This document shows, piece by piece, positions 386 through 37,859 of a stretch of DNA of 37,859 bases; the first letter of the stretch is position 1, and the number at the start of each line of letters is the position of its first letter. Made by a program: the position numbers and the translations under genes. The stretch is from a virus (taxonomy: Duplodnaviria; Heunggongvirae; Uroviricota; Caudoviricetes): the IMG/VR virus record IMGVR_UViG_2541047757_000015. One strand, 5' to 3'. The notes below the pieces were generated by a model, which saw only the letters and a program-made list of their open reading frames with translations, ran no database searches and was not told the origin of the DNA.

Positions 386-1624
386 ATGGCGCTGTCTGAT
401 GCGTGGTTGCGTTCAGTCGTTGGAAAGGAACGTGATAAGGTTTTGGTTAAATCCGATCGTGATGGTCTGTCTGTCAGAGTATCACCGAAAGGTCGCGTAG
501 TGTTCCAATATCGTTATCAATGGGCAGGGAAAGGTGAGCGCCTTGATATCGGAACTTACCCGGCAACTGGATTAAAAGAGGCCAGAGAAGAAGTTATCCG
601 TCTCCGTGGTGAACTCGAGTCAAACCGCAATCCACGATTAGTCAAGCAGGCTGAAAAACGAAAAGCTACTGAAGCCATGACGGTAGAGTCTGTGATCCGT
701 GCCTGGTATGAAGCATATTGTGTAAAAAATAAAAAAGGTTCTGAACAGATACTCCGCTCGTTTGAGCTGCACCTGTTCTCTAAAATCGGGAATATCCCTC
801 ACGATGCAGCTACATTGCATGATTGGTTAGAAGTCCTAGAGCCTCTTAGCACCAAGACTCCAGCAATAGTAGACCGATTGCTAATTAACGCAAAGCAGGC
901 TCATGTCTGGGCGTATAAGAGAAAGCTCATTGAAACTCGCCCACTGTCGGATATCACGGGTAAAGATATGGATATCCGTAAAGGTCAGAAAAAACGGTTT
1001 CTGACACATGATGAAATTAACATCCTTTATGCTGCGATCGATGGTTCTCGAATGGTTCCTAAATACCGAGCCTTCATTAAACTATTGCTGCATTTTGGTT
1101 GCCGTAGTTCAGAGCTAATTACTGCTAGGGTGGATGATTTTGATTTCATAAATAAGGTATGGACTGTACCACCAGAACGACATAAGACTGGGGACATAAC
1201 AGGCGAACCGCTAAAGCGGCCCATTATTGAACCGGTTGAAGAGCTTATAAAATACGTTATCTCTATGAACAACGGTTCCGATATGCTTTTTACTAAGGAA
1301 GGAAGCAGGGAGCCAGTTGGTCGGACATCATTGCAGTCGCTGCCTTACAATTTAATGCAGTTCGCATGGCGACGTTTGGGGTATCAATTTCCTCATTGGT
1401 CTCTTCATGATTTGAGACGAACAGCACGAACAAACTTTTCTGATCTTACTGCTCCTCATATTGCTGAAATAATGCTCGGTCATAAACTGCCAGGGGTATG
1501 GCAAGTTTATGATAAGAGCGATTATCTAGAAGAACAGCGTAAAGCCTATCAGGCATGGTGGGATAGGGTTGATTCGATTCTTACTTACACTAATTTAGGT
1601 TCCAACAGACAGCCTATTGAATAA
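386..1624 (+). CDS. Tyrosine-type site-specific integrase (phage integrase family)
   Basis: 412-aa ORF with ATG start and AGGTGA ribosome-binding site; C-terminal HxxR...Y-type catalytic region (WSLHDLRRTARTNFSDL ... GHKLPGVWQVYDKSDY); sits at the prophage end next to the prfC fragment. Confidence 0.9.
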   Translation: MALSDAWLRSVVGKERDKVLVKSDRDGLSVRVSPKGRVVFQYRYQWAGKGERLDIGTYPATGLKEAREEVIRLRGELESNRNPRLVKQAEKRKATEAMTVESVIRAWYEAYCVKNKKGSEQILRSFELHLFSKIGNIPHDAATLHDWLEVLEPLSTKTPAIVDRLLINAKQAHVWAYKRKLIETRPLSDITGKDMDIRKGQKKRFLTHDEINILYAAIDGSRMVPKYRAFIKLLLHFGCRSSELITARVDDFDFINKVWTVPPERHKTGDITGEPLKRPIIEPVEELIKYVISMNNGSDMLFTKEGSREPVGRTSLQSLPYNLMQFAWRRLGYQFPHWSLHDLRRTARTNFSDLTAPHIAEIMLGHKLPGVWQVYDKSDYLEEQRKAYQAWWDRVDSILTYTNLGSNRQPIE

Positions 1625-1776
1625 TGAATAGACATACAGAGTAAGAAAATAGTAATGATTCTTGGATTATAATTAACTGGTTGCTGATATTTCGATTTGC
1701 CGATTTATGAAGAGACGGTCATTATACTTATAAAAACACCACTCCTTATCCTTACAGAAATAAGGAGTGGAAACAG

Positions 1777-3372
1777 TTATGGCTGAGACTCTGGTTTAGC
1801 AATCTCGTTTATAAATTTCTTAGCTACAACAGTCTCATACTTTCTATAATCATCAAGATATTGAACATCTATATGATTTTTGTAGCGAGCATTAAATTTA
1901 TTTGCATCCCCTGTTTTATCATCTTTACGTTCATCCGTTGGTCTGAAAAATTTATGGTAGCGGCGGGGTGATACCCCCTCAAAATCACAAAATATTACTT
2001 TGGAAGATTCTTCGTTCTTTGTTATTGCATCATTATGCAGATCAAGAGCAAGGCTTTTATCAAATGGCTCTATATATACTACTTTTTTTATTCCAGATGC
2101 GACAATATGCCTTGCACAGTTGTGGCAGGGATAGGTTGTCGTAAAAAGAATTTTATCTTTAGTATCGCCGTTTTGTTTTCTAGCCATTGATGTAATGACG
2201 TCCATTTCAGCATGAATTGATCTGGAGTACTCCATTACACTTGATATTTTGCTGTCTTTGTAAATGCCTTCTGCAATATTATCTAATTTGTTTAGAAGTC
2301 GTGTTATATTAATATCGGCAACAGTTTGTCCTGCGGAAATACCTAATACACTTCTTACTTCGGTTGATAATATGCTTTTTATACGGTCTTTAATTTTTTG
2401 CTTGTTTGCATCATTATAACACTTACCACTTTTGTGAACGCATCGATGATCGTTATCAAAATCATCACTGCTATACAACCCGCCACCAGCTTTAGGTACG
2501 TCGTTCTTACCCACGGCAAGCAAATTCCCTTCATCATCAAACAGTGCAGCCCCTACTTGACGTGATAAACAAGCTGATTGTAATGATGTTGAAAAGGCAG
2601 CATACATACCTTTCTCGTTAAAAGTTGGTGTTAAACCATTTTTGCCATGAATAAGACCGAAAAACCGATCAATCTTCTTCTTTAATTCACTTTTTTGGCT
2701 GAAGTTATTTTTAATAAAAAAATCTGAATCAAGAATGGTTTCCCCGGTTCTTTGTCCATACGGATCAGAGGATTTATTATCAATATTAATAATTAAATGA
2801 AGGTCGTCCTTTGTCGATTCGTCAGCAATGAGATTCGTAATTCGGTAATCTAAATCGCGCAAAACTCCTAACAAATAGAAATTATGCTGATATATAACTC
2901 TGAATAACTCTATTTCTTCCGGCCTTTTGAATTGATCAATGATGAAGACAGTACCTTTATATTCATCATTATTATAATCAATATTCTTTTTCGCTGCTGC
3001 GATTGCTGCAATAGCAGCTTCTGCAAGCAACTCATTTTTTTCGTAATGTTTACGAAGTTTATTGGCAATATCCTGGAGTTTTAAATGTCTATTAACTTGT
3101 GTGCTTTCGGATACCTTCAGTGCTGCTGGCTCAAAATATAATGGGTCTTCCATAAGCGCACTTATGCGGATGTGTACAACATTATACCCCCATTCTTTGG
3201 ATATCTCTTCGATAATTTTGTTTATCGTTTTCATTCCACATCCAACATATCCACATAATCCAAGATAAATATCTTTTGATTGTCGTGAATTCACAATCTC
3301 AAGTGATGATGCCGATGTTGAGCCTTTTTTTTCATTCAGCTTTTGTGGAGTTTTTTTTGCTGCTTCAGCCAT
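1777..3372 (-). CDS. Two-domain protein: N-terminal P-loop/kinase-like region plus C-terminal cytidine/dCMP deaminase domain; AvcD/DCD-like candidate anti-phage dCTP deaminase
   Basis: 531-aa ORF, ATG start. C-terminal zinc-binding deaminase motifs HAEMDVI and PCHNCARHI; N-terminal glycine-rich GYVGCGMKT; markedly AT-rich compared with neighbours; inserted between int and xis. Confidence 0.75.
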   Translation of the reverse strand: MAEAAKKTPQKLNEKKGSTSASSLEIVNSRQSKDIYLGLCGYVGCGMKTINKIIEEISKEWGYNVVHIRISALMEDPLYFEPAALKVSESTQVNRHLKLQDIANKLRKHYEKNELLAEAAIAAIAAAKKNIDYNNDEYKGTVFIIDQFKRPEEIELFRVIYQHNFYLLGVLRDLDYRITNLIADESTKDDLHLIINIDNKSSDPYGQRTGETILDSDFFIKNNFSQKSELKKKIDRFFGLIHGKNGLTPTFNEKGMYAAFSTSLQSACLSRQVGAALFDDEGNLLAVGKNDVPKAGGGLYSSDDFDNDHRCVHKSGKCYNDANKQKIKDRIKSILSTEVRSVLGISAGQTVADINITRLLNKLDNIAEGIYKDSKISSVMEYSRSIHAEMDVITSMARKQNGDTKDKILFTTTYPCHNCARHIVASGIKKVVYIEPFDKSLALDLHNDAITKNEESSKVIFCDFEGVSPRRYHKFFRPTDERKDDKTGDANKFNARYKNHIDVQYLDDYRKYETVVAKKFINEIAKPESQP

Positions 3373-3382
3373 TGCTAATTAC

Positions 3383-3568
3383 CTAGTCGAAAACTATATC
3401 AGTATTTATTATTTCAAAAAATGCATCAAGAATTTCTTTATTTTTCTTTTTACTTTCAAATGAAATGACATTATCTTGATTAAATGTTGTTAATTCAATG
3501 CAGATAGAATCAACCTGATCATTGGCGGCGATGCTCGATTCTATTTCATTAAATGCTATTACATTCAT
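3383..3568 (-). CDS. Small acidic ORF (61 aa) directly upstream of the deaminase gene; may instead mark an AvcI-like antitoxin RNA locus
   Basis: ATG start, stop 10 nt before the deaminase start, same strand; AT-rich; no recognisable protein family. Coding versus RNA status cannot be decided from sequence alone. Confidence 0.35.
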   Translation of the reverse strand: MNVIAFNEIESSIAANDQVDSICIELTTFNQDNVISFESKKKNKEILDAFFEIINTDIVFD

Positions 3569-3912
3569 TTATCTTATCCAAACATAATAAAAAACCATAT
3601 GGCCTTTAGTGTACAACAAAACCATACTCTTTCCCCTCATTTTAGAGGGGGAAGTGTGGTCCACATCATGTTTTTTCCCACCCATGAAAATGTTCACCTA
3701 GGCTGGTGAGGCATTTTATGCACATCAACTCTTTGAGTTGAATCATTATTTTAGTATTTTTTCTATCATTGTGTAAATGTCTTCGTTTCAATACATCATG
3801 CTTGGGGAGCGGTCCCCGTTTCCTGATAATTAATGCTTGTGGATAGCAACGTCCGTGCCTATATCGCTCAGACAGACGCTTACCGTGCCATAGACGTGTC
3901 TGTTCACATACG

Positions 3913-4107
3913 TCATTCAATAACTCCTGCAAACCTGTAAATCTTGCGTGACGCCCATTTATTTGGGCATGATTTAATATCAGGATCTGGAAAATCAGGC
4001 CTGTACTTCTGGCCAGTTCTCCGGTTTACGCTGTTCCAGCGAAGAACTGTCGATACTGAAACGCCACAGAATTCGGCAACTTGTTTTGTTGTCATTAAGT
4101 TGTTCAT
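3913..4107 (-). CDS. Excisionase / AlpA-family helix-turn-helix DNA-binding protein
   Basis: Internal start MNNLMTTKQVAEFCGVSVSTVLRW (HTH); its ATG overlaps the stop of the upstream gene (TAATG coupling); position next to the integration module. Confidence 0.6.
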   Translation of the reverse strand: MNNLMTTKQVAEFCGVSVSTVLRWNSVNRRTGQKYRPDFPDPDIKSCPNKWASRKIYRFAGVIE

Positions 4108-4502
4108 TAGTTCACCTTCTGCGGTTGTGCAGTTGAAAGACTCATTCCAGCGCGTTGCTGCCAGACAACCCAGCCGAGAGCCATATCCCATGCCATGTAC
4201 TCGTTATCGCCGTTTTTGGCTCTCCGACGATCTACTGAGTCACCGAAACGCTTTTCCATGAATAATTCATAAGATATTCGTTCATTTGTGATGGTCATTA
4301 CGGGAGGAGCTAGGTAGAGAGGCGTTCCACCATTTTTGTTGGTAAGTGCAACTACACTTTTACTCAGCATCCATGCCACCGGCTTTTTATCAAGAGAAGC
4401 CAAAGCTATTTGTGCTAGTTCCATTTGCTCGCCACGGGTAAGTCTGTTTTCAAGCGGATTTTTAATGAATAATTCGATACGTTCTTTGGTAATAGAATTC
4501 AT
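4107..4502 (-). CDS. Hypothetical early-left operon protein (CPS-53 YfdT-like position)
   Basis: 131-aa ORF, ATG start 1 nt after the upstream stop; same strand as neighbouring early genes. Confidence 0.55.
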   Translation of the reverse strand: MNSITKERIELFIKNPLENRLTRGEQMELAQIALASLDKKPVAWMLSKSVVALTNKNGGTPLYLAPPVMTITNERISYELFMEKRFGDSVDRRRAKNGDNEYMAWDMALGWVVWQQRAGMSLSTAQPQKVN

Positions 4503-8607: not shown

Positions 8608-9684
8608 TTACTTTGTAAGTTCTAGAACTCGTTGAGCCAGCCCTTTAAATTGTTCGTTAAAGGCGTCTCTGCTTGATTTCATTGTATTTAAGGCATGCCC
8701 AAATTGCCCTGAATCGCGAATTTGCTGATCACTGATGGAGAAAACAGGTGTCGCTAGTTGTTGGCTTATTGCGATTAATGAGTTGAAATCGGAAATATGC
8801 GCAAGATCATAGGCTGATAAATCTCCACTGACTGTTGTTTTGTTAATTGCATGTTGCACTTTATCTCGTGGAATTATGCAGGTAATTTTTTCTAGATTTG
8901 GCACTAAGATCGAATCAACAGCATCACGGATAGCTGCCATCCATTTTTCGAAAGATTTTACAGGTGCTCCTTTACGCGGCCTGTATCTCTGCTGAATCAT
9001 ACCTAGAAACTGCGGTGCATTTTTAATTGATTGTGAAGAGTTACCATCATTATTTTCTTTAAATAATGCTAATTCTTTGTGCCAGCGAGGTATATTTTTT
9101 GAGAGAGAGCGAATTGCTTGCCAGCAAAAAAAGTCTGGAGCTACAGGTACGATAAAATAGTCACTTGACATGAGAACTACTTCATTTAAACCTCCAACAT
9201 TAGGGCTGAGATCATAAAGAATGTAATCAATATTATTCTTCATGGCGATTAGCTGTAATATTTTTGGCAGGTTCCCTGGTATATTTCTTGTAGCAGGAAT
9301 ACCAGCAGCAATTTTTAGAGAAACACTTATCTGTGAATCTAAGTCCGAAACATCTAAATGTCCGGGAAGAAGCAGAAGGTTTTCATGCAGTGTAGGGTGT
9401 AATTTTCCCGTTTCTTTTTCAAGGTATGCTTCAGGTTGTCCGCCATTAATCAAATATTCTACAATAGGTCCAAGAGTTAAGTTATCTCTGCTAGAATAAA
9501 AAGAATCTAAACCCTCATCAATCTTTTCATAGCCAAGAACCATTCCTGTTAGATTACATTGCGAATCAAGGTCAACCATCAATACTTTCTTGCCTTCATC
9601 CGCAAGTGCCCATCCAAGATTGAAGGTTGTTGTGGTTTTACTTACCCCACCTTTATGATTAAAAAAACAAATTGATTTTGTCAT
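8608..9684 (-). CDS. ParA/MinD-superfamily ATPase with a long C-terminal extension; orphan, no ParB seen
   Basis: 358-aa ORF; deviant Walker A NHKGGVSKTTT at the N-terminus, A' motif VLMVDLDSQCN, Walker B-like ILYDLSP; directly downstream of cI on the same strand; AT-rich. Confidence 0.8.
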   Translation of the reverse strand: MTKSICFFNHKGGVSKTTTTFNLGWALADEGKKVLMVDLDSQCNLTGMVLGYEKIDEGLDSFYSSRDNLTLGPIVEYLINGGQPEAYLEKETGKLHPTLHENLLLLPGHLDVSDLDSQISVSLKIAAGIPATRNIPGNLPKILQLIAMKNNIDYILYDLSPNVGGLNEVVLMSSDYFIVPVAPDFFCWQAIRSLSKNIPRWHKELALFKENNDGNSSQSIKNAPQFLGMIQQRYRPRKGAPVKSFEKWMAAIRDAVDSILVPNLEKITCIIPRDKVQHAINKTTVSGDLSAYDLAHISDFNSLIAISQQLATPVFSISDQQIRDSGQFGHALNTMKSSRDAFNEQFKGLAQRVLELTK

Positions 9685-17200: not shown

Positions 17201-17500
17201 AAAAATTCCTTAATACTGATAACTGGGCGCACTATACACACGTTCCTGAAGAAAGCTATAGTTTTTTGATGGGGTTGAAGATGGCTGGATGTCTAAAATA
17301 AACATTGCTTCATATGTTCAACTATGCGTTAATGATTGCGTCGGTTTGAAGAACAGACGATATACGAAGTAGTTTACTAAAGCAGTTCTCATTTCAGGTG
17401 TTATTCACTTATTCCTTCTTTGAGTCTCTCCAATTAAGTACGAAGTCGTTTCTGTTATACAAGCCATTTATGCCGAAAGGCTCAAGTTAAGGAATGTAGA

Positions 17501-17716
17501 ATGTCAAATAAAATGACTGGTTTAGTAAAATGGTTTAACGCTGATAAAGGTTTTGGCTTTATTTCTCCTGTTGATGGTAGTAAAGATGTGTTTGTGCATT
17601 TTTCTGCGATTCAGAATGATAATTTTCGAACCTTGTTTGAAGGTCAAAAGGTTACCTTCTCTGTAGAGAGTGGTGCTAAAGGTCCTGCAGCAGCAAATGT
17701 CATAATTACTGATTAA
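17501..17716 (+). CDS. cspB: Cold-shock protein CspB-like
   Basis: 71 aa, [38 protein letters not shown] ... nucleic-acid-binding cold-shock domain. Confidence 0.85.
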
Positions 17717-17994
17717 AATTCATAGTTTGTCTGTATACGATAACGAAGAAGGCTGATGCCTGAGTGGAGATACAGACAGAGTGGTGAATATTGGATCTCT
17801 TTAATAAATAGTAAGGAGGTCCAATACATGAAACAATGGCCAGCATATTTGGCAATAACTTAATCAGGAAAAGTATGCTAACCATTGTGGTGAAGTGCAG
17901 GTTTGCTGCATGAATAGTTTTACAGCAGAAGCTAACTGCTGGCATAGCAAAACAAAGTGCGTAAGTGGATGACTCCCACAAAAAGTACCACAAT

Positions 17995-21925: not shown

Positions 21926-22285
21926 ATTAATATTAAATCGGATTATTTTTAGCGCTGAATGTGAAATTTAAATAAAAAGGACTCTTCCATGAGTCAAAAT
22001 CCTTGAAATCTTAAGGGTAAGATAAAAGGTCATTAGACAGAATGACACGTTTTATTAATAAATAAAGCTATTGTTTCATTCGTGTGTTTTTCTTTACAAA
22101 AGTAATCCTTGCTATGGTTGGTTAATCATGCGTTAATGGTGTTCTGGTTTGTTACAAAATTATCTGAAGCAGTCATTGTTATAATTTTATTATTTGTACC
22201 TCTTGAGATTTCCTTGTTGGTTTTTCTCTCTGATATTTTTTTTCGGACCATTCTGCCCAAGGGCTAACTTCTTCAAAAGGTAATA

Positions 22286-22501
22286 ATGATGTTTAACAAA
22301 ATGACTGGTTTAGTGAAATGGTTTAACCCTGAAAAAGGTTTTGGTTTCATCACGCCGAAAGATGGTAGCAAAGATGTGTTTGTGCATTTCTCAGCTATTC
22401 AGAGCAACGATTTCAAAACGTTAACTGAGAATCAGGAAGTCGAATTTGGTATTGAGAACGGACCTAAAGGCCCTGCAGCTGTTCATGTAGTGGCACTTTG
22501 A
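22286..22501 (+). CDS. cspI: Cold-shock protein CspI-like
   Basis: [38 protein letters not shown] ... cold-shock domain. Confidence 0.85.
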
Positions 22502-22705
22502 GGTAGAAAATATTACAAACCATATTCACTTTAGATGCCCGTGTTGCCATGGTTCTCAGTATAGAACATCATCTTTTGATGTTTCTGACAGAAATCCTTT
22601 CGGGGCAAAATGTATCTTTTGTAAATCAATGATGATTACATTTGATAATATTTCACAATACTTAAATGTTAGCCATCTGTCGTTAGATTTAAGAAAGTGA
22701 AAATG

Positions 22706-24403: not shown

Positions 24404-24895
24404 ATGGATCATGAGTTGAAAAACCTGGTGCTGAATATTAATCAACTGGCGGCTTTATCTGGTCTGCACCGCCAGACTGTCGTGGCAAGACTGAAAAACA
24501 TTCGTCCCGCTGGTGGACATGACAAACTCAAGCTATACCGGTTGACCGATATTCTGACTGAATTTATGGGGTTACCACCGCCGGTTGCTGAGGGCGAAAT
24601 GGATCCACATGAACGCAAAGCCTGGTATCAGTCTGAACGTGAGCGTCTTAAGTTCGAACAGGAAACGGCACAACTCATTCCGGCCAGTGATGTCAGACGG
24701 GAGTTTGCCATCTGGGCAAAAGCGGTCGTGCAGGTGCTGGAGACATTACCGGATATTCTGGAACGTGACTGCGGCCTGCAGCCTGCCGCTGTGAGCCGTG
24801 TTCAGTCCATTATTGATGATCTGCGCGATCAGATAGCCCTGCGGGTGACCGAAGCAGGTGCGGATGATGAGGAGGAATTACAGCAGGAGGAGTAA
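24404..24895 (+). CDS. Terminase small subunit (Nu1-like)
   Basis: 163 aa, ATG with GGAGG ribosome-binding site; N-terminal HTH NINQLAALSGLHRQTVVARL; acidic C-terminus; immediately precedes the large terminase. Confidence 0.7.
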   Translation: MDHELKNLVLNINQLAALSGLHRQTVVARLKNIRPAGGHDKLKLYRLTDILTEFMGLPPPVAEGEMDPHERKAWYQSERERLKFEQETAQLIPASDVRREFAIWAKAVVQVLETLPDILERDCGLQPAAVSRVQSIIDDLRDQIALRVTEAGADDEEELQQEE

Positions 24896-26997
24896 TGCTG
24901 AATCAGGAAACCGCAAAGGCAGCACGAACCGATTCAGGTTATATCCTTCGCGCACCGAGACGAATGCGGGTTGCTGATGCCGTTGCTCAGTATATGCGGG
25001 TGCCCATGGGGGCCGGGAACTCAGTCCCGTGGGATCCGCTGGTGGCACCGTATGTTATTGAGCCGATGAACTGCCTGGCCTCGCGTGAATACGACGCAGT
25101 GATATTTGTTGGCCCGGCACGAACTGGCAAGACTATCGGCCTGATTGACGGCTGGGTGATTTACAACGTGATTTGCGATCCTGCTGATATGCTGATCATT
25201 CAGATGACGGAGGAAAAAGCCCGCGAACACTCCAAAAAACGACTTGCCAGAACGTTTCGCGTCAGCCCGGAAGTGGTCAGTCGCCTGAGTCCGAACAAAA
25301 ATGACAACAACGTTTATGACAGAACATTCCTTGCTGGCAACTACCTGAAAATCGGCTGGCCGTCAGTCAATATCATGTCCTCATCAGATTATAAATGCGT
25401 GGCGCTGACGGATTATGACCGTTTTCCGGAAGATATTGATGGCGAGGGGGATGCCTTCTCTCTTGCCTCAAAACGTACCACCACATTTATGTCCAGTGGT
25501 ATGACGCTGGTGGAGAGTTCCCCCGGCAGGGATGTGAAGGATGTGAAATGGCGACGGACTTCACCGCATGAGGCTCCACCAACCACGGGGATACTGTCGC
25601 TCTATAACCGTGGCGATCGCCGTCGCTGGTACTGGCCCTGTCCACACTGTGGTGAGTATTTTCAGCCCTGCGGCGATGTGGTTGCTGGTTTCCGTGATAT
25701 TGCCGATCCCGTGCTGGCAAGTGAGGCGGCTTATATTCAGTGTCCTTCCTGTTCAGGACGGATTATGCCTGAACAAAAACGTGAGCTGAACGGACGTGGG
25801 GTCTGGTTGCGGGATGGTGAATCCATCAATGCGGATGGCAGTCGTTATGGTGATCCCCGACGCTCACGTATTGCGTCATTCTGGATGGAGGGTCCGGCAG
25901 CTGCTTACCAGACACTCTCGCAACTCGTTTACAAACTGCTTGCTGCAGAACAGGAATACGAGACAACCGGAAGTGAAGAAACACTCAAGACGGTTATCAA
26001 TACCGACTGGGGATTACCTTATCTTCCCCGTGCCAGCATGGAGCAACGAAAAAGTGAACTGCTTGAGCAGCGGGCAGAGCCAGTTCCTTCCCGCAGTGTG
26101 CCGGATGGCGTTAATTTCCTGGTGGCGACAGTTGATGTGCAGGCGGGACGTCATCGCCGTTTTGTGGTTCAGGTAACGGGCTATGGCAGCCGTGGCGAAC
26201 GCTGGATTATTGATCGTTACAACATCACGCAGTCATTGCGCGGTGACAGCGACGGGGAGAGCCAGCGAATTGATCCGGCCAGCTATCCGGAAGACTGGGA
26301 TGTCCTGCTGACGGATGTTTTTCATAAAAGCTGGCCGCTGGCCTCCGATCCTTCTCAACAAATGCGACTGATGGCAATGGCGGTGGACTCCGGCGGTGAA
26401 GACGGAGTCACTGATAATGCCTATAAATTCTGGCGTCGTTGCCGTCGTGATGGCCTTGGTAAACGTATTTACCTGTTTAAGGGCGACAGCATCCGGCGCG
26501 CAAAACTGATCACCCGTACATTCCCTGATAACACCGGACGAACGGGCCGACGGGCGCAGGCCGCAGGTGATGTACCGCTCTGGCTTCTTCAGACGGATGC
26601 CCTGAAAGACCGGGTGAATAACGCGTTATGGCGTGACTCGCCAGGTCCCGGCTATGTGCATTTCCCTGACTGGCTGGGGAGCTGGTTTTACGACGAACTG
26701 ACGTATGAAGAGCGGAGCAGTGACGGGAAATGGAGTAAGCCGGGTCGCGGTGCCAACGAAGCTTTTGACCTGATGGTGTATGCCGAGGCTCTGGTCATTC
26801 TGCATGGATACGAAAAGATCCGCTGGCCGGATGCACCGGAGTGGGCGAGCCGGGAAACCTGGCTGGAGTGTGTCCCGGACAGTACCGAACCGTCACCCAC
26901 ACCGGAACCGGTATCCACGCCTGTTAAAAAACAAAAACGGAAGAAAACAGTAACTGACGATGTTAACCCCTGGCTGACTTCCGGAGGATGGTTATGA
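24895..26997 (+). CDS. Terminase large subunit (GpA-like)
   Basis: 700 aa; Walker A-like GPARTGKT; CPHCGE zinc motif typical of GpA-type terminases; start overlaps the small-subunit stop. Confidence 0.85.
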   Translation: MLNQETAKAARTDSGYILRAPRRMRVADAVAQYMRVPMGAGNSVPWDPLVAPYVIEPMNCLASREYDAVIFVGPARTGKTIGLIDGWVIYNVICDPADMLIIQMTEEKAREHSKKRLARTFRVSPEVVSRLSPNKNDNNVYDRTFLAGNYLKIGWPSVNIMSSSDYKCVALTDYDRFPEDIDGEGDAFSLASKRTTTFMSSGMTLVESSPGRDVKDVKWRRTSPHEAPPTTGILSLYNRGDRRRWYWPCPHCGEYFQPCGDVVAGFRDIADPVLASEAAYIQCPSCSGRIMPEQKRELNGRGVWLRDGESINADGSRYGDPRRSRIASFWMEGPAAAYQTLSQLVYKLLAAEQEYETTGSEETLKTVINTDWGLPYLPRASMEQRKSELLEQRAEPVPSRSVPDGVNFLVATVDVQAGRHRRFVVQVTGYGSRGERWIIDRYNITQSLRGDSDGESQRIDPASYPEDWDVLLTDVFHKSWPLASDPSQQMRLMAMAVDSGGEDGVTDNAYKFWRRCRRDGLGKRIYLFKGDSIRRAKLITRTFPDNTGRTGRRAQAAGDVPLWLLQTDALKDRVNNALWRDSPGPGYVHFPDWLGSWFYDELTYEERSSDGKWSKPGRGANEAFDLMVYAEALVILHGYEKIRWPDAPEWASRETWLECVPDSTEPSPTPEPVSTPVKKQKRKKTVTDDVNPWLTSGGWL

Positions 26998-28040: not shown

Positions 28041-28370
28041 ATGCAGTTTGTCATGCGGCTTGCCCGGGAGTTCCGGCGGGCAGACTGGCGGCGGATGCTG
28101 TCGGAAATGTCGGCCACTGAGCTTGGTGAGTGGGGCGATTATTTCCGGATGCAGAGCTTCAGTGATGTGTGGATGGATGCGCAGTTTGCCTCGCTGAAGG
28201 CATTGATCGTGAGAATGGTGTCCGGCAGCAGTGATGCTGCGGTGGCTGATTTCAGCCTTTTACCGGAAGAGAACGGGATACCGGAGCGAACGGACGAAGA
28301 ACTGATGCATCTTGGGGAAGGTATTTCCGGAGGTGTGCGTTATGGACCAGATAGCCAACCTGGTCATTGA
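28041..28370 (+). CDS. T: T segment of the G-T tail assembly chaperone (expressed by -1 frameshift from G)
   Basis: -1 frame ORF with REFRRADWRRMLSEMS ... GGVRYG resembling lambda gpT; shift must occur near GAAAAG at the end of G. Confidence 0.7.
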   Translation: MQFVMRLAREFRRADWRRMLSEMSATELGEWGDYFRMQSFSDVWMDAQFASLKALIVRMVSGSSDAAVADFSLLPEENGIPERTDEELMHLGEGISGGVRYGPDSQPGH

Positions 28371-31300
28371 GTTGGGGATTGATGCGGCAGAGTTTAAAAA
28401 TGAAATTCCCCGTATCAAAAACCTTCTGAATGGTGCAGCCAGCGATGCAGAACGGTCTTCTGCCCGTATGCAGCGTTTTATGGAGCGTCAGACTCAGGCC
28501 GCCCGGCAGACAACGCAGGCAGCTTCTTCGGCTGCAACAGCCGCATCCGTCCATGCGCAGACGGTGGAGAAGAACGCACAGGCTCATGAACGCATGGCCC
28601 GCGAGGTGGAGAAAACCCGCCAGCGCATGGAGGCACTGAGCCAGAAAATGCGCGAGGAACAGGCGCAGGCCATGGCTCTGGCGGAGGCTCAGGATAAAGC
28701 GGCTGCTGCGTTTTATCGTCAGATTGACAGTGTGAAACAGGCCAGTGCGGGGCTGCAGGAATTACAGCGTATTCAGCAGCAGATCCGACAGGCCAGAAAC
28801 AGTGGCGGGATTGGTCAGCAGGATTATCTGGCGCTGATTTCTGAGGTTACTGCGAAAACCCGTGTTCTTACACAGGCTGAGGAAGAGGCTACCCGACAGA
28901 AAGTGGCGTTTATCCGTCAGCTTAAAGAGCAGGCAACCCGCCTGAATCTTTCATCTTCTGAGTTGCTTCGTGCTAAGGCAGCCCAGCTGGGGGTAAGCAG
29001 TGCTGCAGAAGTGTATATCCGCAAAATGGAGCAGGCAGGAAAAGCCACGCATTCGCTGGGTCTGAAAAGTGCAGCAGCCCGCCAGGAGATAGGCGTTCTG
29101 ATAGGTGAACTGGCCCGCGGCAATTTAGGGGCGCTGAGGGGATCCGGGATAACGCTGGCTAACCGTGCCGGATGGATAGACACACTGATGTCACCGAAAG
29201 GCATGATGCTTGGCGGGGTTATTGGCGGTATTGCCGCGGCCGTCTATGGTCTGGGTAAAGCCTGGTATGACGGTCAGAAGGAGGGGGAAGAATTTAACCG
29301 CCAGTTGTCGCTGACGGGGCATTATGCCGGAGTCACTGCCGGGCAGCTGTGGACGCTCAGTCGTGCTATTTCCGGGAATGGTATCACGCAACATGCTGCA
29401 GCCGGTGCGCTGGCTCAGGTGGTGGGGAGTGGTGCATTTCGTGGAAACGATATCGGTATGGTGGCGAGAGTTGCCGCACAGATGGAGCGATCGGTTGGCC
29501 AGTCGGTCAGCGATACCATAAATCAGTTTAAGCGGCTGAAGGATGATCCTGTAAATGCCGCGAAGGCTCTGGACAATGAGCTGCATTTTCTTACTGCCAC
29601 TCAGCTTGAGCAGATACGCGTCCTTGGGGAGCAGGGGCGGTCCAGTGATGCTGCACGGATAGCCATGTCTGCACTGGCAGAGGAAACCGGTCGGCGTACT
29701 GCGGATATTGATAATAACCTCAATGCGCTTGGCAGTACGCTGAAGTATCTGTCTGATTTGTGGAGTCGTTTCTGGGATGCGGCCATGAATATTGGTCGTG
29801 AAGACTCGCTGGATGAACAGATTGCCGCTTTACAGGAGAAAGTGTCGCGGGCGAAAAGACTCCCCTGGACGGCATCATCTTCTCAGGTTGAATACGATCA
29901 GCAGCGTCTTAACGATCTTCAGGAGAAAAAACGCCAGAAGGATTTGCAGGATGCAAAAGAGCAGGCAGAGCGGAATTATCAGGAGCAACAGAAACGCCGT
30001 AATGCTGAAAATGCTGCACTGAACCGGATGAATGAAACGGAAGCAGCACGACATCAGCGTGAAATTGCGCGTATTAATGCCATGCAGTACGCCGATCAGG
30101 CTGTCAGGGATGCGGCGATACAACGTGAAAATGAACGTTACGAGAAAGCCCTGGCATCCGGTAAGAAAAAAACACGCGAAACCCGTAATGATGAGGCCAC
30201 CCGGTTATTGCTGCAGTACAGTCAGCAACAGGCACAGGTGGAAGGACAGATTGCTGCTGCCAGACAGTCAGCAGGCATTGCCACGGAAAGGATGACAGAA
30301 GCGCATAAACAGCTTCTGGCTCTGCAGCAGCGCATCAGCGACCTGGACGGGAAAAAACTGACGGCAGATGAAAAGAGTGTGCTGGCCCGTAAAGATGAAC
30401 TGATTCAGGCACTGACGCTGCTGGATGTAAAACAGCAGGAGCTTCAGAAACAGACGGCACTCAACGAGCTGAAGAAAAAAACAATTCAGCTGACCAGTCA
30501 ACTGGCTGAAGAAGAGCGCGCTCAGCGTCAGCAACATGACCTGGATATCGCCACGGTGGGTATGGGTGATCAGCAGCGACAGCGATATCAGGTACAACTG
30601 AGTCTTCGCCAGAAATACCAGCAACAGCTGGAGCAGTTGAGGCGGGATAGTGAGCAGAAAGGGACATATAACACGGATGACTACAGAAAGGCCGAGCAGG
30701 CGCTGACGGAGAGCCTGAACCGACAACTGAATGAGAATCGCCGTTACTGGCAACAGCTTGAAGTTGTGCAGGGTAACTGGAAAAACGGAGTCCTGCGTGC
30801 ATTTCAGGATTTTACCGTGGATGCAGATAATACGGCAGAAACAGCAGAACAGGTGTTCTCGTCAGCCTTCAGCAACATGGGAAATGGCCTGGCAACTTTT
30901 GTCACTACCGGCAAACTCAATTTCAAATCCTTCACCTCTTCTGTGCTGTCAGATATGGCGAAAATCCTGGCGCAGGCAACCATGATGAAATCGATAAAAG
31001 GGATTGGCAGTGTACTGGGATTTGATCTCAGCAGCCTTTCCCTGAATGCCAATGGGGGGATTTATCAGTCTGCTGATTTGAGTCGTTACAGTGGCACGGT
31101 GGTTAACCGTCCGACGTTTTTTGCTTTTGCAAAAGGCGCGGGTGTGATGGGGGAAGCGGGACCTGAAGCCATTCTGCCATTGCGTCGTGGTGCTGACGGT
31201 AAGCTGGGGGTTGTGGCGGATATTGGGGGGTCAGGTATGGCGATGTTTTCCCCGCAGTACAACATCGAGATCAATAACGATGGCACGAACGGGCAGATAG

Positions 31301-31407
31301 GTCCGGCTGCCCTGAAGGCGGTTTATGACCTCGGGAAAAAAGCGGCAGCGGACTTTATGCAACAGCAGGCCCGTGATGGTGGTCGGTTAAGTGGAGCATA
31401 TCGGTAA
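28342..31407 (+). CDS. H: Tail tape measure protein H
   Basis: ~1021 aa; N-terminus MDQIANLVIELGIDAAEF and C-terminus NIEINNDGTNGQIGPAALKAVYDLGKK resemble lambda gpH; GGAGG ribosome-binding site. Confidence 0.9.
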   Translation: MDQIANLVIELGIDAAEFKNEIPRIKNLLNGAASDAERSSARMQRFMERQTQAARQTTQAASSAATAASVHAQTVEKNAQAHERMAREVEKTRQRMEALSQKMREEQAQAMALAEAQDKAAAAFYRQIDSVKQASAGLQELQRIQQQIRQARNSGGIGQQDYLALISEVTAKTRVLTQAEEEATRQKVAFIRQLKEQATRLNLSSSELLRAKAAQLGVSSAAEVYIRKMEQAGKATHSLGLKSAAARQEIGVLIGELARGNLGALRGSGITLANRAGWIDTLMSPKGMMLGGVIGGIAAAVYGLGKAWYDGQKEGEEFNRQLSLTGHYAGVTAGQLWTLSRAISGNGITQHAAAGALAQVVGSGAFRGNDIGMVARVAAQMERSVGQSVSDTINQFKRLKDDPVNAAKALDNELHFLTATQLEQIRVLGEQGRSSDAARIAMSALAEETGRRTADIDNNLNALGSTLKYLSDLWSRFWDAAMNIGREDSLDEQIAALQEKVSRAKRLPWTASSSQVEYDQQRLNDLQEKKRQKDLQDAKEQAERNYQEQQKRRNAENAALNRMNETEAARHQREIARINAMQYADQAVRDAAIQRENERYEKALASGKKKTRETRNDEATRLLLQYSQQQAQVEGQIAAARQSAGIATERMTEAHKQLLALQQRISDLDGKKLTADEKSVLARKDELIQALTLLDVKQQELQKQTALNELKKKTIQLTSQLAEEERAQRQQHDLDIATVGMGDQQRQRYQVQLSLRQKYQQQLEQLRRDSEQKGTYNTDDYRKAEQALTESLNRQLNENRRYWQQLEVVQGNWKNGVLRAFQDFTVDADNTAETAEQVFSSAFSNMGNGLATFVTTGKLNFKSFTSSVLSDMAKILAQATMMKSIKGIGSVLGFDLSSLSLNANGGIYQSADLSRYSGTVVNRPTFFAFAKGAGVMGEAGPEAILPLRRGADGKLGVVADIGGSGMAMFSPQYNIEINNDGTNGQIGPAALKAVYDLGKKAAADFMQQQARDGGRLSGAYR

Positions 31408-33737: not shown

Positions 33738-33797
33738 TGAAAAACGTTTTATGTGAAACCGCCTCCGGGCGGTTTTGTCGTTTATGGAGCGTTAGGA

Positions 33798-36700
33798 ATG
33801 GGTAAAGGCAGCAGTAAGGGGCATACTCCGCGCGAAGCGAAGGACAACCTGAAGTCCACGCAGTTGCTGAGTGTGATCGATGCCATCAGCGAAGGGCCGA
33901 TTGAAGGTCCGGTGGATGGATTAAAAAGCGTGCTGCTGAACAGTACGCCAGTGCTGGACACTGAGGGGAATACCAACATCTCCGGCGTCACGGTGGTGTT
34001 CCGGGCAGGTGAACAGGAGCAGACACCGCCGGAGGGATTTGAATCCTCCGGCTCCGAGACGGTGCTGGGTACGGAAGTGAAATATGACACGCCGATCACC
34101 CGCACCATCACGTCGGCAAACATCGACCGTCTGCGCTTTACCTTCGGTGTGCAGGCACTGGTGGAAACCACCTCAAAGGGGGACAGGAATCCATCGGAAG
34201 TCCGCCTGCTGGTTCAGATACAGCGTAACGGTGGCTGGGTGACGGAAAAAGACATCACCATTAAGGGCAAAACCACCTCGCAGTATCTGGCCTCGGTGGT
34301 GGTGGATAACCTGCCGCCGCGCCCGTTTAATATCCGGATGCGCAGGATGACGCCGGACAGCACCACAGACCAGCTGCAGAACAAAACGCTCTGGTCGTCA
34401 TACACCGAAATCATCGATGTGAAACAGTGCTACCCGAACACGGCACTGGTTGGCGTGCAGGTGGACTCGGAGCAGTTCGGCAGCCAGCAGGTGAGCCGTA
34501 ATTATCATCTTCGCGGGCGCATTCTGCAGGTGCCGTCGAACTATAACCCGCAGACGCGGCAATACAGCGGTATCTGGGACGGAACGTTAAAACCGGCATA
34601 CAGCAACAACATGGCCTGGTGTCTGTGGGATATGCTGACCCATCCGCGCTACGGCATGGGGAAACGTCTTGGTGCGGCGGATGTGGATAAATGGGCGCTG
34701 TATGTCATCGGCCAGAATTGCGACCAGTCGGTGCCGGACGGCTTTGGCGGCACGGAGCCGCGCATCACCTGTAACGCTTACCTGACCACACAGCGCAAGG
34801 CGTGGGATGTGCTCAGTGATTTCTGCTCGGCGATGCGCTGTATGCCGGTATGGAACGGGCAGACGCTGACGTTCGTGCAGGACCGACAGTCGGATAAGGT
34901 GTGGACCTATAACCGCAGTAATGTGGTGATGCCGGATGATGGCGCGCCGTTCCGCTACAGCTTCAGCGCCCTGAAGGACCGCCATAATGCCGTTGAGGTG
35001 AACTGGATTGACCCGAACAACGGCTGGGAGACGGCGACAGAGCTTGTTGAAGATACGCAGGCCATTGCCCGTTACGGTCGTAATGTCACGAAGATGGATG
35101 CCTTTGGTTGTACCAGTCGGGGGCAGGCACACCGAGCCGGGCTGTGGCTGATTAAAACGGAACTGCTGGAAACGCAGACCGTGGATTTCAGCGTGGGCGC
35201 AGAAGGGCTTCGCCATGTGCCGGGCGATGTTATTGAAATCTGCGATGATGACTATGCCGGTATCAGCATCGGTGGTCGCGTGCTGGCGGTGAACAGCCAG
35301 ACCCGGACGCTGACGCTCGACCGTGAAATCACGCTGCCATCCTCCGGCACCACGCTGATAAGCCTGGTTGACGGTGAGGGTAATCCGGTCAGCGTGGAGG
35401 TCCAGTCCGTCACCGACGGCGTGAAGGTGAAAGTGAGCCGTGTTCCTGACGGCGTTGCTGAATACAGCGTGTGGGGGCTGAAGTTGCCGACGTTGCGCCA
35501 GCGCCTGTTCCGCTGCGTGAGTATCCGTGAGAACGACGACGGCACGTATGCCATCACTGCCGTGCAGCATGTACCGGAGAAAGAGGCCATCGTGGATAAC
35601 GGGGCGCACTTTGACGGCGACCAGAGCGGCACGGTGAATGGTGTCACGCCGCCAGCGGTGCAGCACCTGACTGCCGAAGTCACCGCAGACAGCGGGGAAT
35701 ATCAGGTGCTGGCCCGCTGGGACACGCCGAAAGTGGTGAAGGGCGTGAGCTTCCTGCTTCGCCTGACCGTGGCAGCGGATGACGGCAGTGAGCGGCTGGT
35801 CAGCACGGCCCGGACGACGGAAACCACATACCGCTTCACGCAACTGGCGCTGGGGCGTTACATGCTGACGGTCCGGGCGGTAAATGCGTGGGGGCTGCAG
35901 GGCGATCCGGCATCGGTATCGTTCCGGATTGCCGCACCGGCAGCGCCGTCTCGGATTGAGCTGACACCGGGCTATTTTCAGATAACCGCCACGCCACATC
36001 TTGCGGTTTATGACCCGACGGTACAGTTTGAGTTCTGGTTCTCGGAAAAACGGATTGCGGATATCAGGCAGGTTGAAACCACAGCCCGCTATCTTGGCAC
36101 GGCGCTGTACTGGATAGCTGCCAGTATCAATATCAGGCCGGGCCATGATTATTATTTTTACGTTCGCAGTGTGAACACCGTTGGCAAATCGGCATTCGTG
36201 GAGGCTGTTGGTCGGGCGAGCGATGATGCGGAAGGTTACCTGGATTTTTTCAAAGGCCAGATAACCGAATCCCATCTTGGCAAGGAGCTGCTGGAAAAAG
36301 TCGAGCTGACGGAGGATAACGCCAGCAAACTGGAGGAGTTTTCGAAAGAGTGGAAGGACGCCAGTGATAAGTGGAATGCCATGTGGGGCGTCAAAATTGA
36401 GCAGACCAAAGACGGCAAACATTATGTCGCGGGTATTGGCCTCAGCATGGAGGACACGGAGGAAGGCAAACTGAGCCAGTTCCTGGTTGCCGCTAACCGT
36501 ATCGCGTTTATTGATCCGTCTAATGGCAACACAAGACCAATGTTTGTTGGTCAGGGCGATCAGATATTCATGAACGACGTGTTCCTGAAACGCCTGACGG
36601 CTCCGACCATTACCAGCGGCGGTAATCCTCCGGCATTTTCCCTGACACCGGATGGGCGGCTGACGGCGAAAAATGCCGATATCAGCGGTAACGTGAATGC

Positions 36701-37190
36701 GAACTCCGGGACGCTCAACAACGTCACGATTAACGAGAACTGTCGGGTTCTGGGAAAACTGTCCGCGAACCAGATTGAAGGCGATCTCGTTAAAACAGTG
36801 GGCAAAGCTTTCCCCCGGGACTCCCGTGCACCGGAACGGTGGCCATCAGGGACCATTACCGTCAGGGTTTATGACGATCAGCCGTTTGACCGGCAGATTG
36901 TTATTCCTGCGGTGGCATTCAGCGGCGCTAAACATGAGAGAGAGCATACTGATATTTACTCCTCATGCCGTCTGATAGTGCGGAAAAACGGTGCTGAAAT
37001 TTATAACCGTACCGCGCTGGATAATACGCTGATTTACAGTGGCGTTATTGATATGCCTGCCGGTCACGGTCACATGACGCTGGAGTTTTCGGTGTCAGCA
37101 TGGCTGGTAAATGACTGGTATCCCACAGCAAGTATCAGCGATTTGCTGGTTGTGGTGATGAAGAAAGCCACCGCAGGCATCAGTATCAGC
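33798..37190 (+). CDS. J: Tail tip / host specificity protein J; no in-frame stop at the expected end, frame continues into lom
   Basis: Near-identical to lambda gpJ over the N-terminal ~980 aa ([18 protein letters not shown] ...); C-terminal ~150 aa diverge; end placed at the lambda-equivalent position, 1131 codons. Confidence 0.8.
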
Positions 37191-37210
37191 GAATTTTATA
37201 ACCCATATAC

Positions 37211-37238
37211 GGGCGCCAGAAATGGCGCCTTTTTTATT
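37211..37238 (+). terminator. Rho-independent terminator in the J-lom spacer
   Basis: GGGCGCC-AGAAAT-GGCGCC followed by TTTTTTATT. Confidence 0.5.
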
Positions 37239-37259
37239 GCAGAAAAGCGAGAGGTAATT

Positions 37260-37859
37260 ATGCGTAAAGTTTGTGCAGCCATTTTGTCCGCAGCCATTTG
37301 TCTGGCCGTATCCGGTGCGCCTGCATGGGCGTCTGAACATCAGTCCACGCTGAGCGCGGGGTATCTTCATGCCTCGACGAACGTCCCCGGCAGTGATGAT
37401 CTGAACGGGATTAACGTGAAATACCGTTATGAGTTTACGGACACACTGGGGCTGGTGACGTCATTCAGCTATGCAGGAGACAAGAATCGCCAGCTGACCC
37501 GTTACAGCGATACCCGCTGGCATGAAGATTCCGTTCGTAACCGCTGGTTCAGCGTAATGGCGGGGCCGTCTGTGCGCGTGAATGAATGGTTCAGCGCGTA
37601 TGCGATGGCGGGTGTAGCTTACAGCCGTGTGTCGACTTTCTCCGGGGATTATCTTCGCGTAACTGACAACAAGGGGAAAAAGCACGATGTGCTGACCGGA
37701 AGTGATGACGGTCGCCACAGCAACACGTCTCTGGCGTGGGGGGCTGGCGTGCAGTTTAACCCGACCGAATCCGTGGCCATTGATATTGCTTATGAAGGCT
37801 CCGGCAGTGGCGACTGGCGCACTGACGGTTTCATCGTGGGTGTCGGTTATAAGTTCTGA
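37260..37859 (+). CDS. lom: Lom outer-membrane protein (Ail/Lom family)
   Basis: [24 protein letters not shown] signal peptide and beta-barrel body nearly identical to lambda Lom; GAGAGG ribosome-binding site; the window ends at its stop codon. Confidence 0.85.

Follow-up and report, generated by a model that had tools for sequence, protein, structure and literature searches.

The short element directly upstream of the deaminase gene avcD in the viral sequence IMGVR_UViG_2541047757_000015 (37,859 nucleotides from a member of the Caudoviricetes; the whole stretch is called the window here) is, judged by how its homologues have diverged, a genuine protein-coding gene whose product is under purifying selection. 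The comparative evidence also indicates that positions 1777-3715 on the minus strand are an AvcID toxin-antitoxin anti-phage cassette, inserted as a low-GC segment beside the integrase gene of a lambdoid prophage. In the literature, AvcID figures as a type III-like system whose antitoxin, AvcI, is a non-coding RNA that restrains the deaminase toxin AvcD. Membership in AvcID therefore makes the locus an already known kind of system, whereas the coding signature of its small open reading frame (ORF) appears to be undescribed. The reading that we favour, and to which we give an even chance, is that the element would produce a dual-function antitoxin transcript, in which an RNA antitoxin and a selected small protein are combined. 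We propose the RNA part because of the homologous systems, the covariation of a hairpin inside the ORF and the stop alleles that are tolerated in nature, and the protein part because of the substitution pattern.

Coding signature of the small ORF

All statements about the cassette refer to the minus strand of the window, and coordinates are window positions. The ORF list and its translations place avcD (531 amino acids, aa) at 1777-3372 and the small ORF at 3383-3568 (186 nt, from an ATG start to a TAG stop). The AvcI-equivalent element thus carries a conserved ORF of 61 codons that encodes an acidic peptide (MNVIAFNEIESSIAANDQVDSICIELTTFNQDNVISFESKKKNKEILDAFFEIINTDIVFD; 13 D/E, 5 K). The two ORFs lie on the same strand and are separated by exactly 10 nt (3373-3382), and the GC content of the small ORF is 0.27. 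These coordinates and the 27% GC agree with an earlier reading of the window made from the sequence alone (the sequence-only reading), which had pointed out a 61-codon, AT-rich ORF ending 10 nt before the deaminase start. At this composition, an open frame of 60 codons arises by chance with p ~0.0024 per frame; the remaining five frames over the same region hold 2-13 stops.

For the comparison, loci were retrieved via AvcD alone (scans of genomes, metagenomes and viral contigs, exact-protein look-ups and plasmid tblastn), and therefore whether and how the upstream region is preserved played no part in the sampling. The sample comprises 19 distinct lineages with upstream sequence, whose AvcD proteins are 45-99% identical: E. 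coli, Budvicia, Morganella, Providencia, Enterobacter kobei, Pantoea, five metagenomic clades, plasmid p58 of enterotoxigenic E. coli (ETEC), the 4.6-kb plasmid type of Klebsiella and E. coli, V. cholerae, V. parahaemolyticus, V. fluvialis, V. coralliilyticus and Photobacterium damselae. An ORF that begins with ATG and ends just before avcD is present in 19 of the 19 lineages, with 56-67 codons in 18 and 84 codons in one. A small same-strand element directly 5' of avcD, as in AvcID systems, is therefore an arrangement kept across the sample.

The substitution pattern of the small ORF is that of a coding sequence. The ratio of nonsynonymous to synonymous rates (dN/dS, or omega; Nei-Gojobori method, NG86) is 0.05-0.42 in frame for most independent pairs and ~1 in the two other frames. 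Differences at the first, second and third codon positions number 10/5/30 between loci L037 and L045 (omega 0.05), 8/3/14 between the window and Budvicia (omega 0.19) and 69/56/115 when pooled over five non-overlapping pairs (chi-square p = 6e-6), and a codon bootstrap gave P(omega>=1) <=0.013 in 9 of 15 pairs. With such values, this antitoxin region departs from the non-coding antitoxin of the published description. Replacements are conservative (D/E, I/V/L, K/R, S/T), the alignment of the 61-codon family is gapless, and the motifs NV[IV][SD]F and [EK]I[LIM]N[TK][ED]I.[FL]D-stop are kept in clades whose synonymous sites are saturated. In the same pairs, dN/dS of avcD is 0.07-0.12. The omega of the small ORF lies above this range, and the peptide is therefore less constrained than the enzyme, yet clearly constrained.

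Homology beyond the immediate family is visible in the peptide. When the peptide profile of the window clade was compared with that of the AvcI ORF family of ETEC, hhalign returned 94.9% (E 4.3e-8), whereas blastn of the element against 72,556 plasmids, including p58 of ETEC strain H10407, returned no match. Homology seen only as protein is as expected of a coding sequence. Homology to a validated AvcI was thus found for ETEC H10407 at the protein level, but not at the nucleotide level, and not for Vibrio. The hhalign result, together with the identical position and orientation, strengthens the assignment of the upstream element to AvcI that had been made from the sequence alone. The claim that went with this assignment, namely that the element may not be a protein gene, did not hold up, given an ORF in 19 of 19 lineages, the third-position bias, omega below 1 and protein-only homology. 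Likewise, the statement that sequence alone cannot tell peptide from RNA is correct for a single sequence, but comparative sequence can decide.

The PHROG family phrog_9966, a 61-position profile with no assigned function, matches the small ORF at 1.9e-43. Most E. coli genomes annotated by the NCBI pipeline PGAP lack the ORF as a called gene; a minority have it, as hypothetical protein WP_040091656.1. A search with a hidden Markov model (HMM) of 1.84 billion representative proteins found only two clusters of 61 aa, and thus the small-protein family is narrow. The peptide is strongly acidic, and no Pfam, NCBIfam or PADLOC domain was found in it.

The elements of Vibrio show the same coding tendency, on thinner data. 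Between V. cholerae and V. parahaemolyticus, the ORFs differ at 19/12/31 sites by codon position (dN 0.42, dS 1.12) and by an in-frame indel of 6 nt (two codons), and among homologues of the V. cholerae peptide, the C-terminal half is nearly unchanged. Six ORFs of the Vibrio type and the Klebsiella plasmid type (56-60 aa, basic) share the C-terminal motif A..L...A.K(L/I).W-stop; in their own records they lie at 1753-1923 (L049), 948-1124 (L071), 940-1122 (L073), 944-1114 (L083), 940-1113 (L084) and 1093-1275 (L050). This suggests that a second family of small proteins is encoded within validated AvcI elements.

RNA-level signals and disrupted alleles

Part of the case for an RNA comes from published work. 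In V. cholerae, a 174-nt ORF directly 5' of the deaminase gene and in the same orientation inhibits the deaminase post-translationally, and AvcI is still inhibitory when it lacks a ribosome-binding site (RBS) or when its start codon is changed to a stop (Hsueh et al. preprint). AvcI RNA was found in a complex with AvcD, which it inhibits in vitro. Rifampicin or phage infection makes this RNA disappear and spectinomycin does not, and AvcID is activated by rifampicin and not by spectinomycin. The AvcD proteins assayed in the same preprint were those of V. cholerae, V. parahaemolyticus and ETEC H10407, and no amino-acid or nucleotide similarity was reported among the upstream ORFs. The constructs used for ETEC, Proteus and the V. 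parahaemolyticus element ("DifV") were entire small ORFs, and inhibition was specific for the cognate deaminase. That AvcD is toxic by itself, and that an abundant but labile AvcI neutralises it, is known for the Vibrio and ETEC systems only.

In the window, we found a candidate RNA hairpin inside the small ORF (3493-3554; codons 5-26), in which ORF nt 15-22 pair with 69-76 and nt 25-34 with 56-65. The hairpin was predicted independently in nine lineages whose AvcD is >=75% identical, and 13-18 of its 18 pairs are kept in them. Covariation was tested on a gapless alignment of 10 sequences against 500 shuffles and against controls in which the structure was slid along the alignment. Paired cells amounted to 88.9%, compared with 83.5% in the shuffles (0 of 500 reached the observed value) and 31-41% in the slid controls. 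Eight pairs had changed on both sides, compared with 4.4 +/- 1.4 in the shuffles (4 of 500), and the covariation score was 0.263, compared with 0.161 in the shuffles and <=0.142 in the slid controls. The local fold has a predicted energy of -16.3 kcal/mol (z = -1.9). In E. kobei, UUUAAUG/CAUUGAA has become UUUGACA/UGUCGAA, so that three pairs are compensated via amino-acid changes on both arms.

Elsewhere in the element, RNA-level signals were scarce. RNAalifold on the full leader plus ORF gave a negligible covariation term outside this 5' hairpin; a second, 3' helix that it proposed showed almost no compensatory change and was dropped. Rfam searches, with a permissive E-value on the region and at gathering thresholds on the window, gave chance-level matches in the region and no match to an AvcI family. 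The covariance-model comparison with AvcI that had been proposed from the sequence alone thus came back negative in Rfam.

Disrupted alleles of the small ORF occur in nature (loci L055 and L016, IMG/VR UViG 2778261428; proteins P0012, P0028 and P0029). In one E. coli lineage, GAA is changed to TAA at codon 45 (3436 G>T), which leaves 44 aa, and avcD is full length. A frameshift in a T run, found in six member sequences, yields a 52-aa product ending in AFLK-stop, and a frameshift in an A run yields 50 aa. The homopolymer frameshift alleles lose the conserved C-terminus, and an intact avcD is established only for the nonsense allele. Together, these alleles are weak evidence that the full peptide is dispensable for keeping AvcD harmless, which fits an RNA antitoxin. 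The proposal that the upstream element may be an AvcI-like RNA antitoxin therefore stands in part: an RNA role is plausible from the V. cholerae analogy and the covarying hairpin, but an RNA-only, non-coding element is not supported.

The cassette and its prophage surroundings

The translation of avcD points to a dCTP/dCMP deaminase with a predicted N-terminal P-loop kinase-like domain and a C-terminal deoxycytidylate deaminase domain. It contains the motifs GYVGCGMKT, IIDQF, HAEMD and PCHNC, of which IIDQF is the equivalent of the D162/Q163 site of V. cholerae AvcD and HAEMD and PCHNC are the HxE and PCxxC zinc motifs. The two-domain architecture and the zinc motifs are those of an AvcID toxin. 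The protein matches the PADLOC dCTPase model (E 9.9e-165 over residues 10-529), the NCBIfam model NF041025 "anti-phage dCTP deaminase" (468 bits, cutoff 400) and Pfam dCMP_cyt_deam_1 (PF00383), and PGAP applies the label "anti-phage dCTP deaminase" to avcD in 49 of 5,426 complete E. coli genomes. Window AvcD is 61% identical to AvcD of ETEC H10407 p58, 45% to that of V. cholerae and 44% to that of V. parahaemolyticus. The identification of the gene as an AvcID-type deaminase in the sequence-only reading is borne out by the PADLOC and NCBIfam matches and by the identity to the ETEC protein.

The cassette stands out by composition (29-37% GC over ~1600-3600, compared with 42-50% in the flanks). 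About 130 nt 5' of the small ORF are conserved among the closest relatives, and homology with Morganella begins at ~3715. Relatives that carry the cassette include Providencia, Morganella, Budvicia and E. kobei, in the last of which it lies between a different integrase gene and icd; the Pantoea cassette lies inside a conjugative tra region.

At the junction of the two genes (3373-3385), the TAG stop of the small ORF (3383-3385) and the G that follows form AGG(T), a Shine-Dalgarno (SD)-like sequence 9-12 nt before the avcD ATG. The surrounding GATTAGG does not vary among the eight members of the 61-aa family that were aligned, and the ETEC-type element has it too. Overlap of a stop codon with the SD-like sequence of the next gene suggests translational coupling, and translation of avcD is thus probably coupled to that of the small ORF. 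A terminator of the kind typical of type III systems would not fit into the 10-nt gap. The small ORF is itself preceded by an SD-like sequence in every clade: in the window, the purine-rich stretch GGATAAGA (3572-3579), read from the sequence, lies 4-11 nt before its ATG, and GGA, AGGA or GAGG stretches occupy this position in other clades (GGATGAGA, AGGATAAA, AGGAGAG in ETEC and GAGGA in V. parahaemolyticus).

An alignment of the upstream regions revealed a T run followed by the motif GT(T/A)GTAnnnT (GGTTTTGTTGTACACT, 3608-3623), a candidate -10 element. This is the sole non-coding motif common to the 61-aa subfamily and the ETEC type. It lies 35-48 nt before the ATG, and in L037 a promoter-like site (AAGACA-18-TAAAAT) was scored that has this motif as its -10. 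If the motif acts as a -10, the candidate transcription start would lie ~30-35 nt before the ATG of the small ORF. Consensus scans for sigma-70 promoters in five family members found no consistently placed promoter. The promoter-like AT-rich region noted from the sequence alone proved weak, with 3 matches in 3200-4000 and 3.3 expected from shuffles. The best match from the consensus scan (TTTACA-18-TAAAAT, 10/12; 3748-3777) is probably not the cassette promoter because it lies outside the region conserved in Morganella.

The CCCCTC/GAGGGG hairpin that had been noticed further upstream is present at 3629-3654, with core arms at 3633-3638 and 3645-3650. Folding it as RNA gave -14.5 kcal/mol (z = -2.55), a stability matched by 5 of 200 shuffles. 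It was not accepted as a conserved RNA structure, since its upper stem is broken without compensation in Budvicia, L035 and Providencia. If GT(T/A)GTAnnnT is the -10, the hairpin lies at about -20 to -45, outside the transcript; rather than belonging to AvcI, it probably serves as an insulating terminator or as a -35/operator region. Near the upstream edge of the conserved cassette, a terminator scan found a second, terminator-like hairpin with a T-rich tail (TCACCAGCCTAGGTGA, 3694-3709). Both hairpins may be read as insulation or as a promoter-proximal site.

Two observations concern the same upstream segment. Between the candidate -10 and the RBS of the small ORF lies a palindrome, CCATATGG, followed by a T6 run (3595-3602, minus strand). 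It has a predicted energy of -4.3 kcal/mol and is kept in the closest relatives, but its counterparts in Providencia and Morganella have decayed. Its role could be that of a weak attenuator hairpin or of a site bound by a protein. In E. coli 08-00022 (NZ_CP013662.1; L086 1788-4346), a copy of IS1A is inserted ~70 nt 5' of the small ORF, at the equivalent of about window position 3623, and thus lands between the CCCCTC hairpin and the candidate -10. Strains with the upstream IS1A have a 1-nt deletion in avcD, which is annotated as an N-terminally shortened gene (505 aa), and the related OkiPb strains have the same upstream break and a split avcD. In these cases, upstream damage therefore co-occurs with damage to the toxin gene.

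The window as a whole (1-37859) is a lambdoid prophage, with an integrase gene at 386-1624, early genes of the yfdP/Q/R type and large ORFs that we take to be terminase and tail genes (24895-26997, 28312-31407 and 33753-37859). In E. coli 13TMH22, the prophage is integrated beside yjjG. The cassette lies between int and the early region. Upstream of it and in the same orientation, a 92-aa ORF (3913-4191, minus strand) has weak matches to HTH_17/MerR-type helix-turn-helix domains and may be the remnant of a prophage regulator; nearby in related strains lies a fragmentary gene that PGAP labels "DNA-binding protein". In the early region, a 358-aa ORF (8608-9684, minus strand) has an N-terminus (KGGVSKTTT) that resembles a ParA/Soj-type ATPase. 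Rfam matches to the cspA thermoregulator above the gathering score (17340-17779 and 22131-22547, plus strand; 160 and 105 bits) indicate two prophage-borne cold-shock-protein genes with thermosensors in their 5' untranslated regions (UTRs).

Interpretation and relation to known systems

If the element encodes a dual-function antitoxin transcript, the cassette might work as follows. Judging from the homologous ETEC and Vibrio systems that have been tested, the upstream element's transcript would most likely bind and inhibit AvcD. When a phage shuts off host transcription, the transcript would decay and AvcD would be released, and free AvcD would starve replication of dC nucleotides. The hairpin at 3493-3554 would be the best candidate for an RNA-level determinant, whether of AvcD binding, of stability or of both. 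As for the peptide, our guess is that it might assist the AvcD-AvcI complex as an auxiliary partner or modulate it.

There are at least three other ways to account for the element. It could encode a pure non-coding RNA antitoxin, with the 61-codon frame being incidental. This would be in line with V. cholerae AvcI, which works without translation signals and inhibits AvcD in vitro, with the natural nonsense and frameshift alleles of the ORF (avcD being intact in the nonsense allele, the one checked), with the omission of the ORF by PGAP in most E. coli genomes and with the covarying hairpin inside the ORF. However, a pure RNA does not explain the three-base periodicity of substitutions, an in-frame omega of 0.05-0.4 beside ~1 off frame, the conservative D/E, I/V and K/R replacements and in-frame indels, the constant length of the ORF in 19 lineages or homology that is seen only in the protein, and we consider it highly improbable. 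Alternatively, the ORF could be a translated leader, in which translation as such matters, either for coupling to avcD or for protection from Rho or RNases. A stop embedded in the avcD SD sequence across the whole 61-aa family, a gap of 10 nt that is too small for a terminator and a hairpin right after the start codon all fit this account. But coupling constrains the openness of a frame and not the identity of its amino acids: an omega well below 1 and the motifs NV[IV]SF and EIxNT[ED]IxFD, kept across clades saturated at synonymous sites, argue that the product is selected, and Vibrio-type loci with gaps of ~75 nt, which are thus uncoupled, have nevertheless kept the ORF. We regard a translated leader as improbable.

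In the enterobacterial clade, the small acidic protein could itself be the antitoxin, in the manner of a type II system, and the RNA a mere mRNA. Such an account, which we think unlikely, though less so than the previous two, draws on the purifying selection on the peptide, on the coupled operon in which the stop of the small ORF overlaps the avcD SD sequence, and on the ETEC, Proteus and V. parahaemolyticus constructs of the preprint, which are cognate-specific and, as whole small ORFs, leave RNA and peptide unseparated. It is at odds with the use of RNA by the homologous Vibrio systems and with the E45-stop allele, which removes the best-conserved C-terminus while avcD is full length; a frameshift allele truncates the peptide too. 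In addition, the peptide has no recognisable antitoxin or DNA-binding domain and its AlphaFold2 model is of low confidence, and the covarying hairpin would need a separate explanation.

Several results weigh against the dual-function transcript as well. On the RNA side, the hairpin was derived from the window sequence itself, its 10 sequences reflect few independent events, and the ETEC element that was tested lacks it; the leader and ORF together, 235 nt of RNA, are no more stable when folded than shuffles (z = +0.28). In a test for extra synonymous constraint, the rate in the small ORF came out only mildly and non-significantly below that of avcD (lower by NG86 dS, not significantly so by raw differences at third positions). 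On the protein side, the AlphaFold2 model of the 61-aa peptide has a pLDDT of 52, and a profile comparison of the window- and ETEC-clade peptides with those of the Vibrio clade detected no homology. The preprint, for its part, did not separate RNA from peptide for the enterobacterial elements.

With somewhat less than even confidence, we extend the dual-function transcript to AvcI elements generally, those of the ETEC and Vibrio types included: they may be dual-function RNAs that encode a conserved protein of ~56-61 aa, which would make AvcID a three-component system. If true, this would be the first toxin-antitoxin module whose RNA antitoxin is a selected coding sequence. Annotation pipelines skip the small ORF or label it hypothetical; if it yields a real, functional product, a third player has to enter the model of AvcD restraint and release. 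Such a player would bear on which phages trigger the system, on the cognate specificity of inhibition and on the dependence of protection on temperature and timing, and defence finders that treat the dCTP deaminase as a single gene would need the upstream gene added. If the peptide is irrelevant, the locus simply adds to the AvcID cassettes carried by prophages. Recoding can cleanly separate the coding layer from the RNA layer, so the question is directly testable.

The closest characterised system is AvcID of ETEC H10407 (plasmid p58, NC_017723.1), with AvcD WP_000951932.1 and an upstream 61-aa "hypothetical protein", WP_000070788.1. Both loci have a two-domain AvcD of 531-532 aa, a 61-codon ORF directly 5' and in the same orientation, whose stop lies within GATTAGG 10-12 nt before avcD, homologous peptide families (hhalign 94.9%) and an upstream GTAGTAnnAT motif. 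They differ in that AvcD is 61% and the peptide ~24% identical, with no nucleotide similarity detected, and in that the ETEC cassette resides on a 5.8-kb mobilisable plasmid and that of the window in a prophage; the ORF hairpin of the window clade has no counterpart in the ETEC element. At such a distance, published AvcI elements inhibit only their cognate deaminase, so the two systems are not expected to cross-inhibit. With the Vibrio systems (DcdV/DifV; V. cholerae VSP-1 and V. parahaemolyticus), the window shares the AvcD architecture at 44-45% identity and an ORF-bearing element, there of 56-58 codons, that is 5' and in the same orientation. In Vibrio, the function is phage defence through depletion of dC nucleotides, and AvcI has been shown to act as RNA. 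Unlike in the window, the gap to avcD is ~75 nt, hence there is no overlap of stop and SD sequence, and the peptide is basic rather than acidic, with no homology detected. The Vibrio elements were published as "non-coding", yet the ORFs of both clades evolve in a coding fashion.

Window AvcD is also above threshold in both models of the anti-phage dCTP deaminase (Tal et al. 2022; PADLOC dCTPase, NCBIfam NF041025), which are built for a system of one gene and leave the upstream element out. As in type III toxin-antitoxin systems (ToxIN, TenpIN, CptIN), a protein toxin would be neutralised post-translationally by an RNA encoded just upstream and would be activated upon transcription shut-off, as is known from Vibrio AvcID. 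Unlike in those systems, the toxin is a deaminase and not an endoribonuclease, the antitoxin region is coding, the 10-nt gap holds no terminator between antitoxin and toxin, and there is no tandem-repeat array (tandem repeats are absent from 3300-3800, where short scattered repeats alone were found), so that by repeats, terminator and toxin type the locus falls outside the ToxIN-like type III systems.

Bacterial RNAs with a second, coding function include SgrS/SgrT, RNAIII/delta-haemolysin and SR1/SR1P, and we know of none that serves as the antitoxin of a toxin-antitoxin system. The element described here would resemble the SgrS/SgrT type, in that one short transcript would combine an RNA-level activity with a small conserved ORF, both of which we infer for the window.

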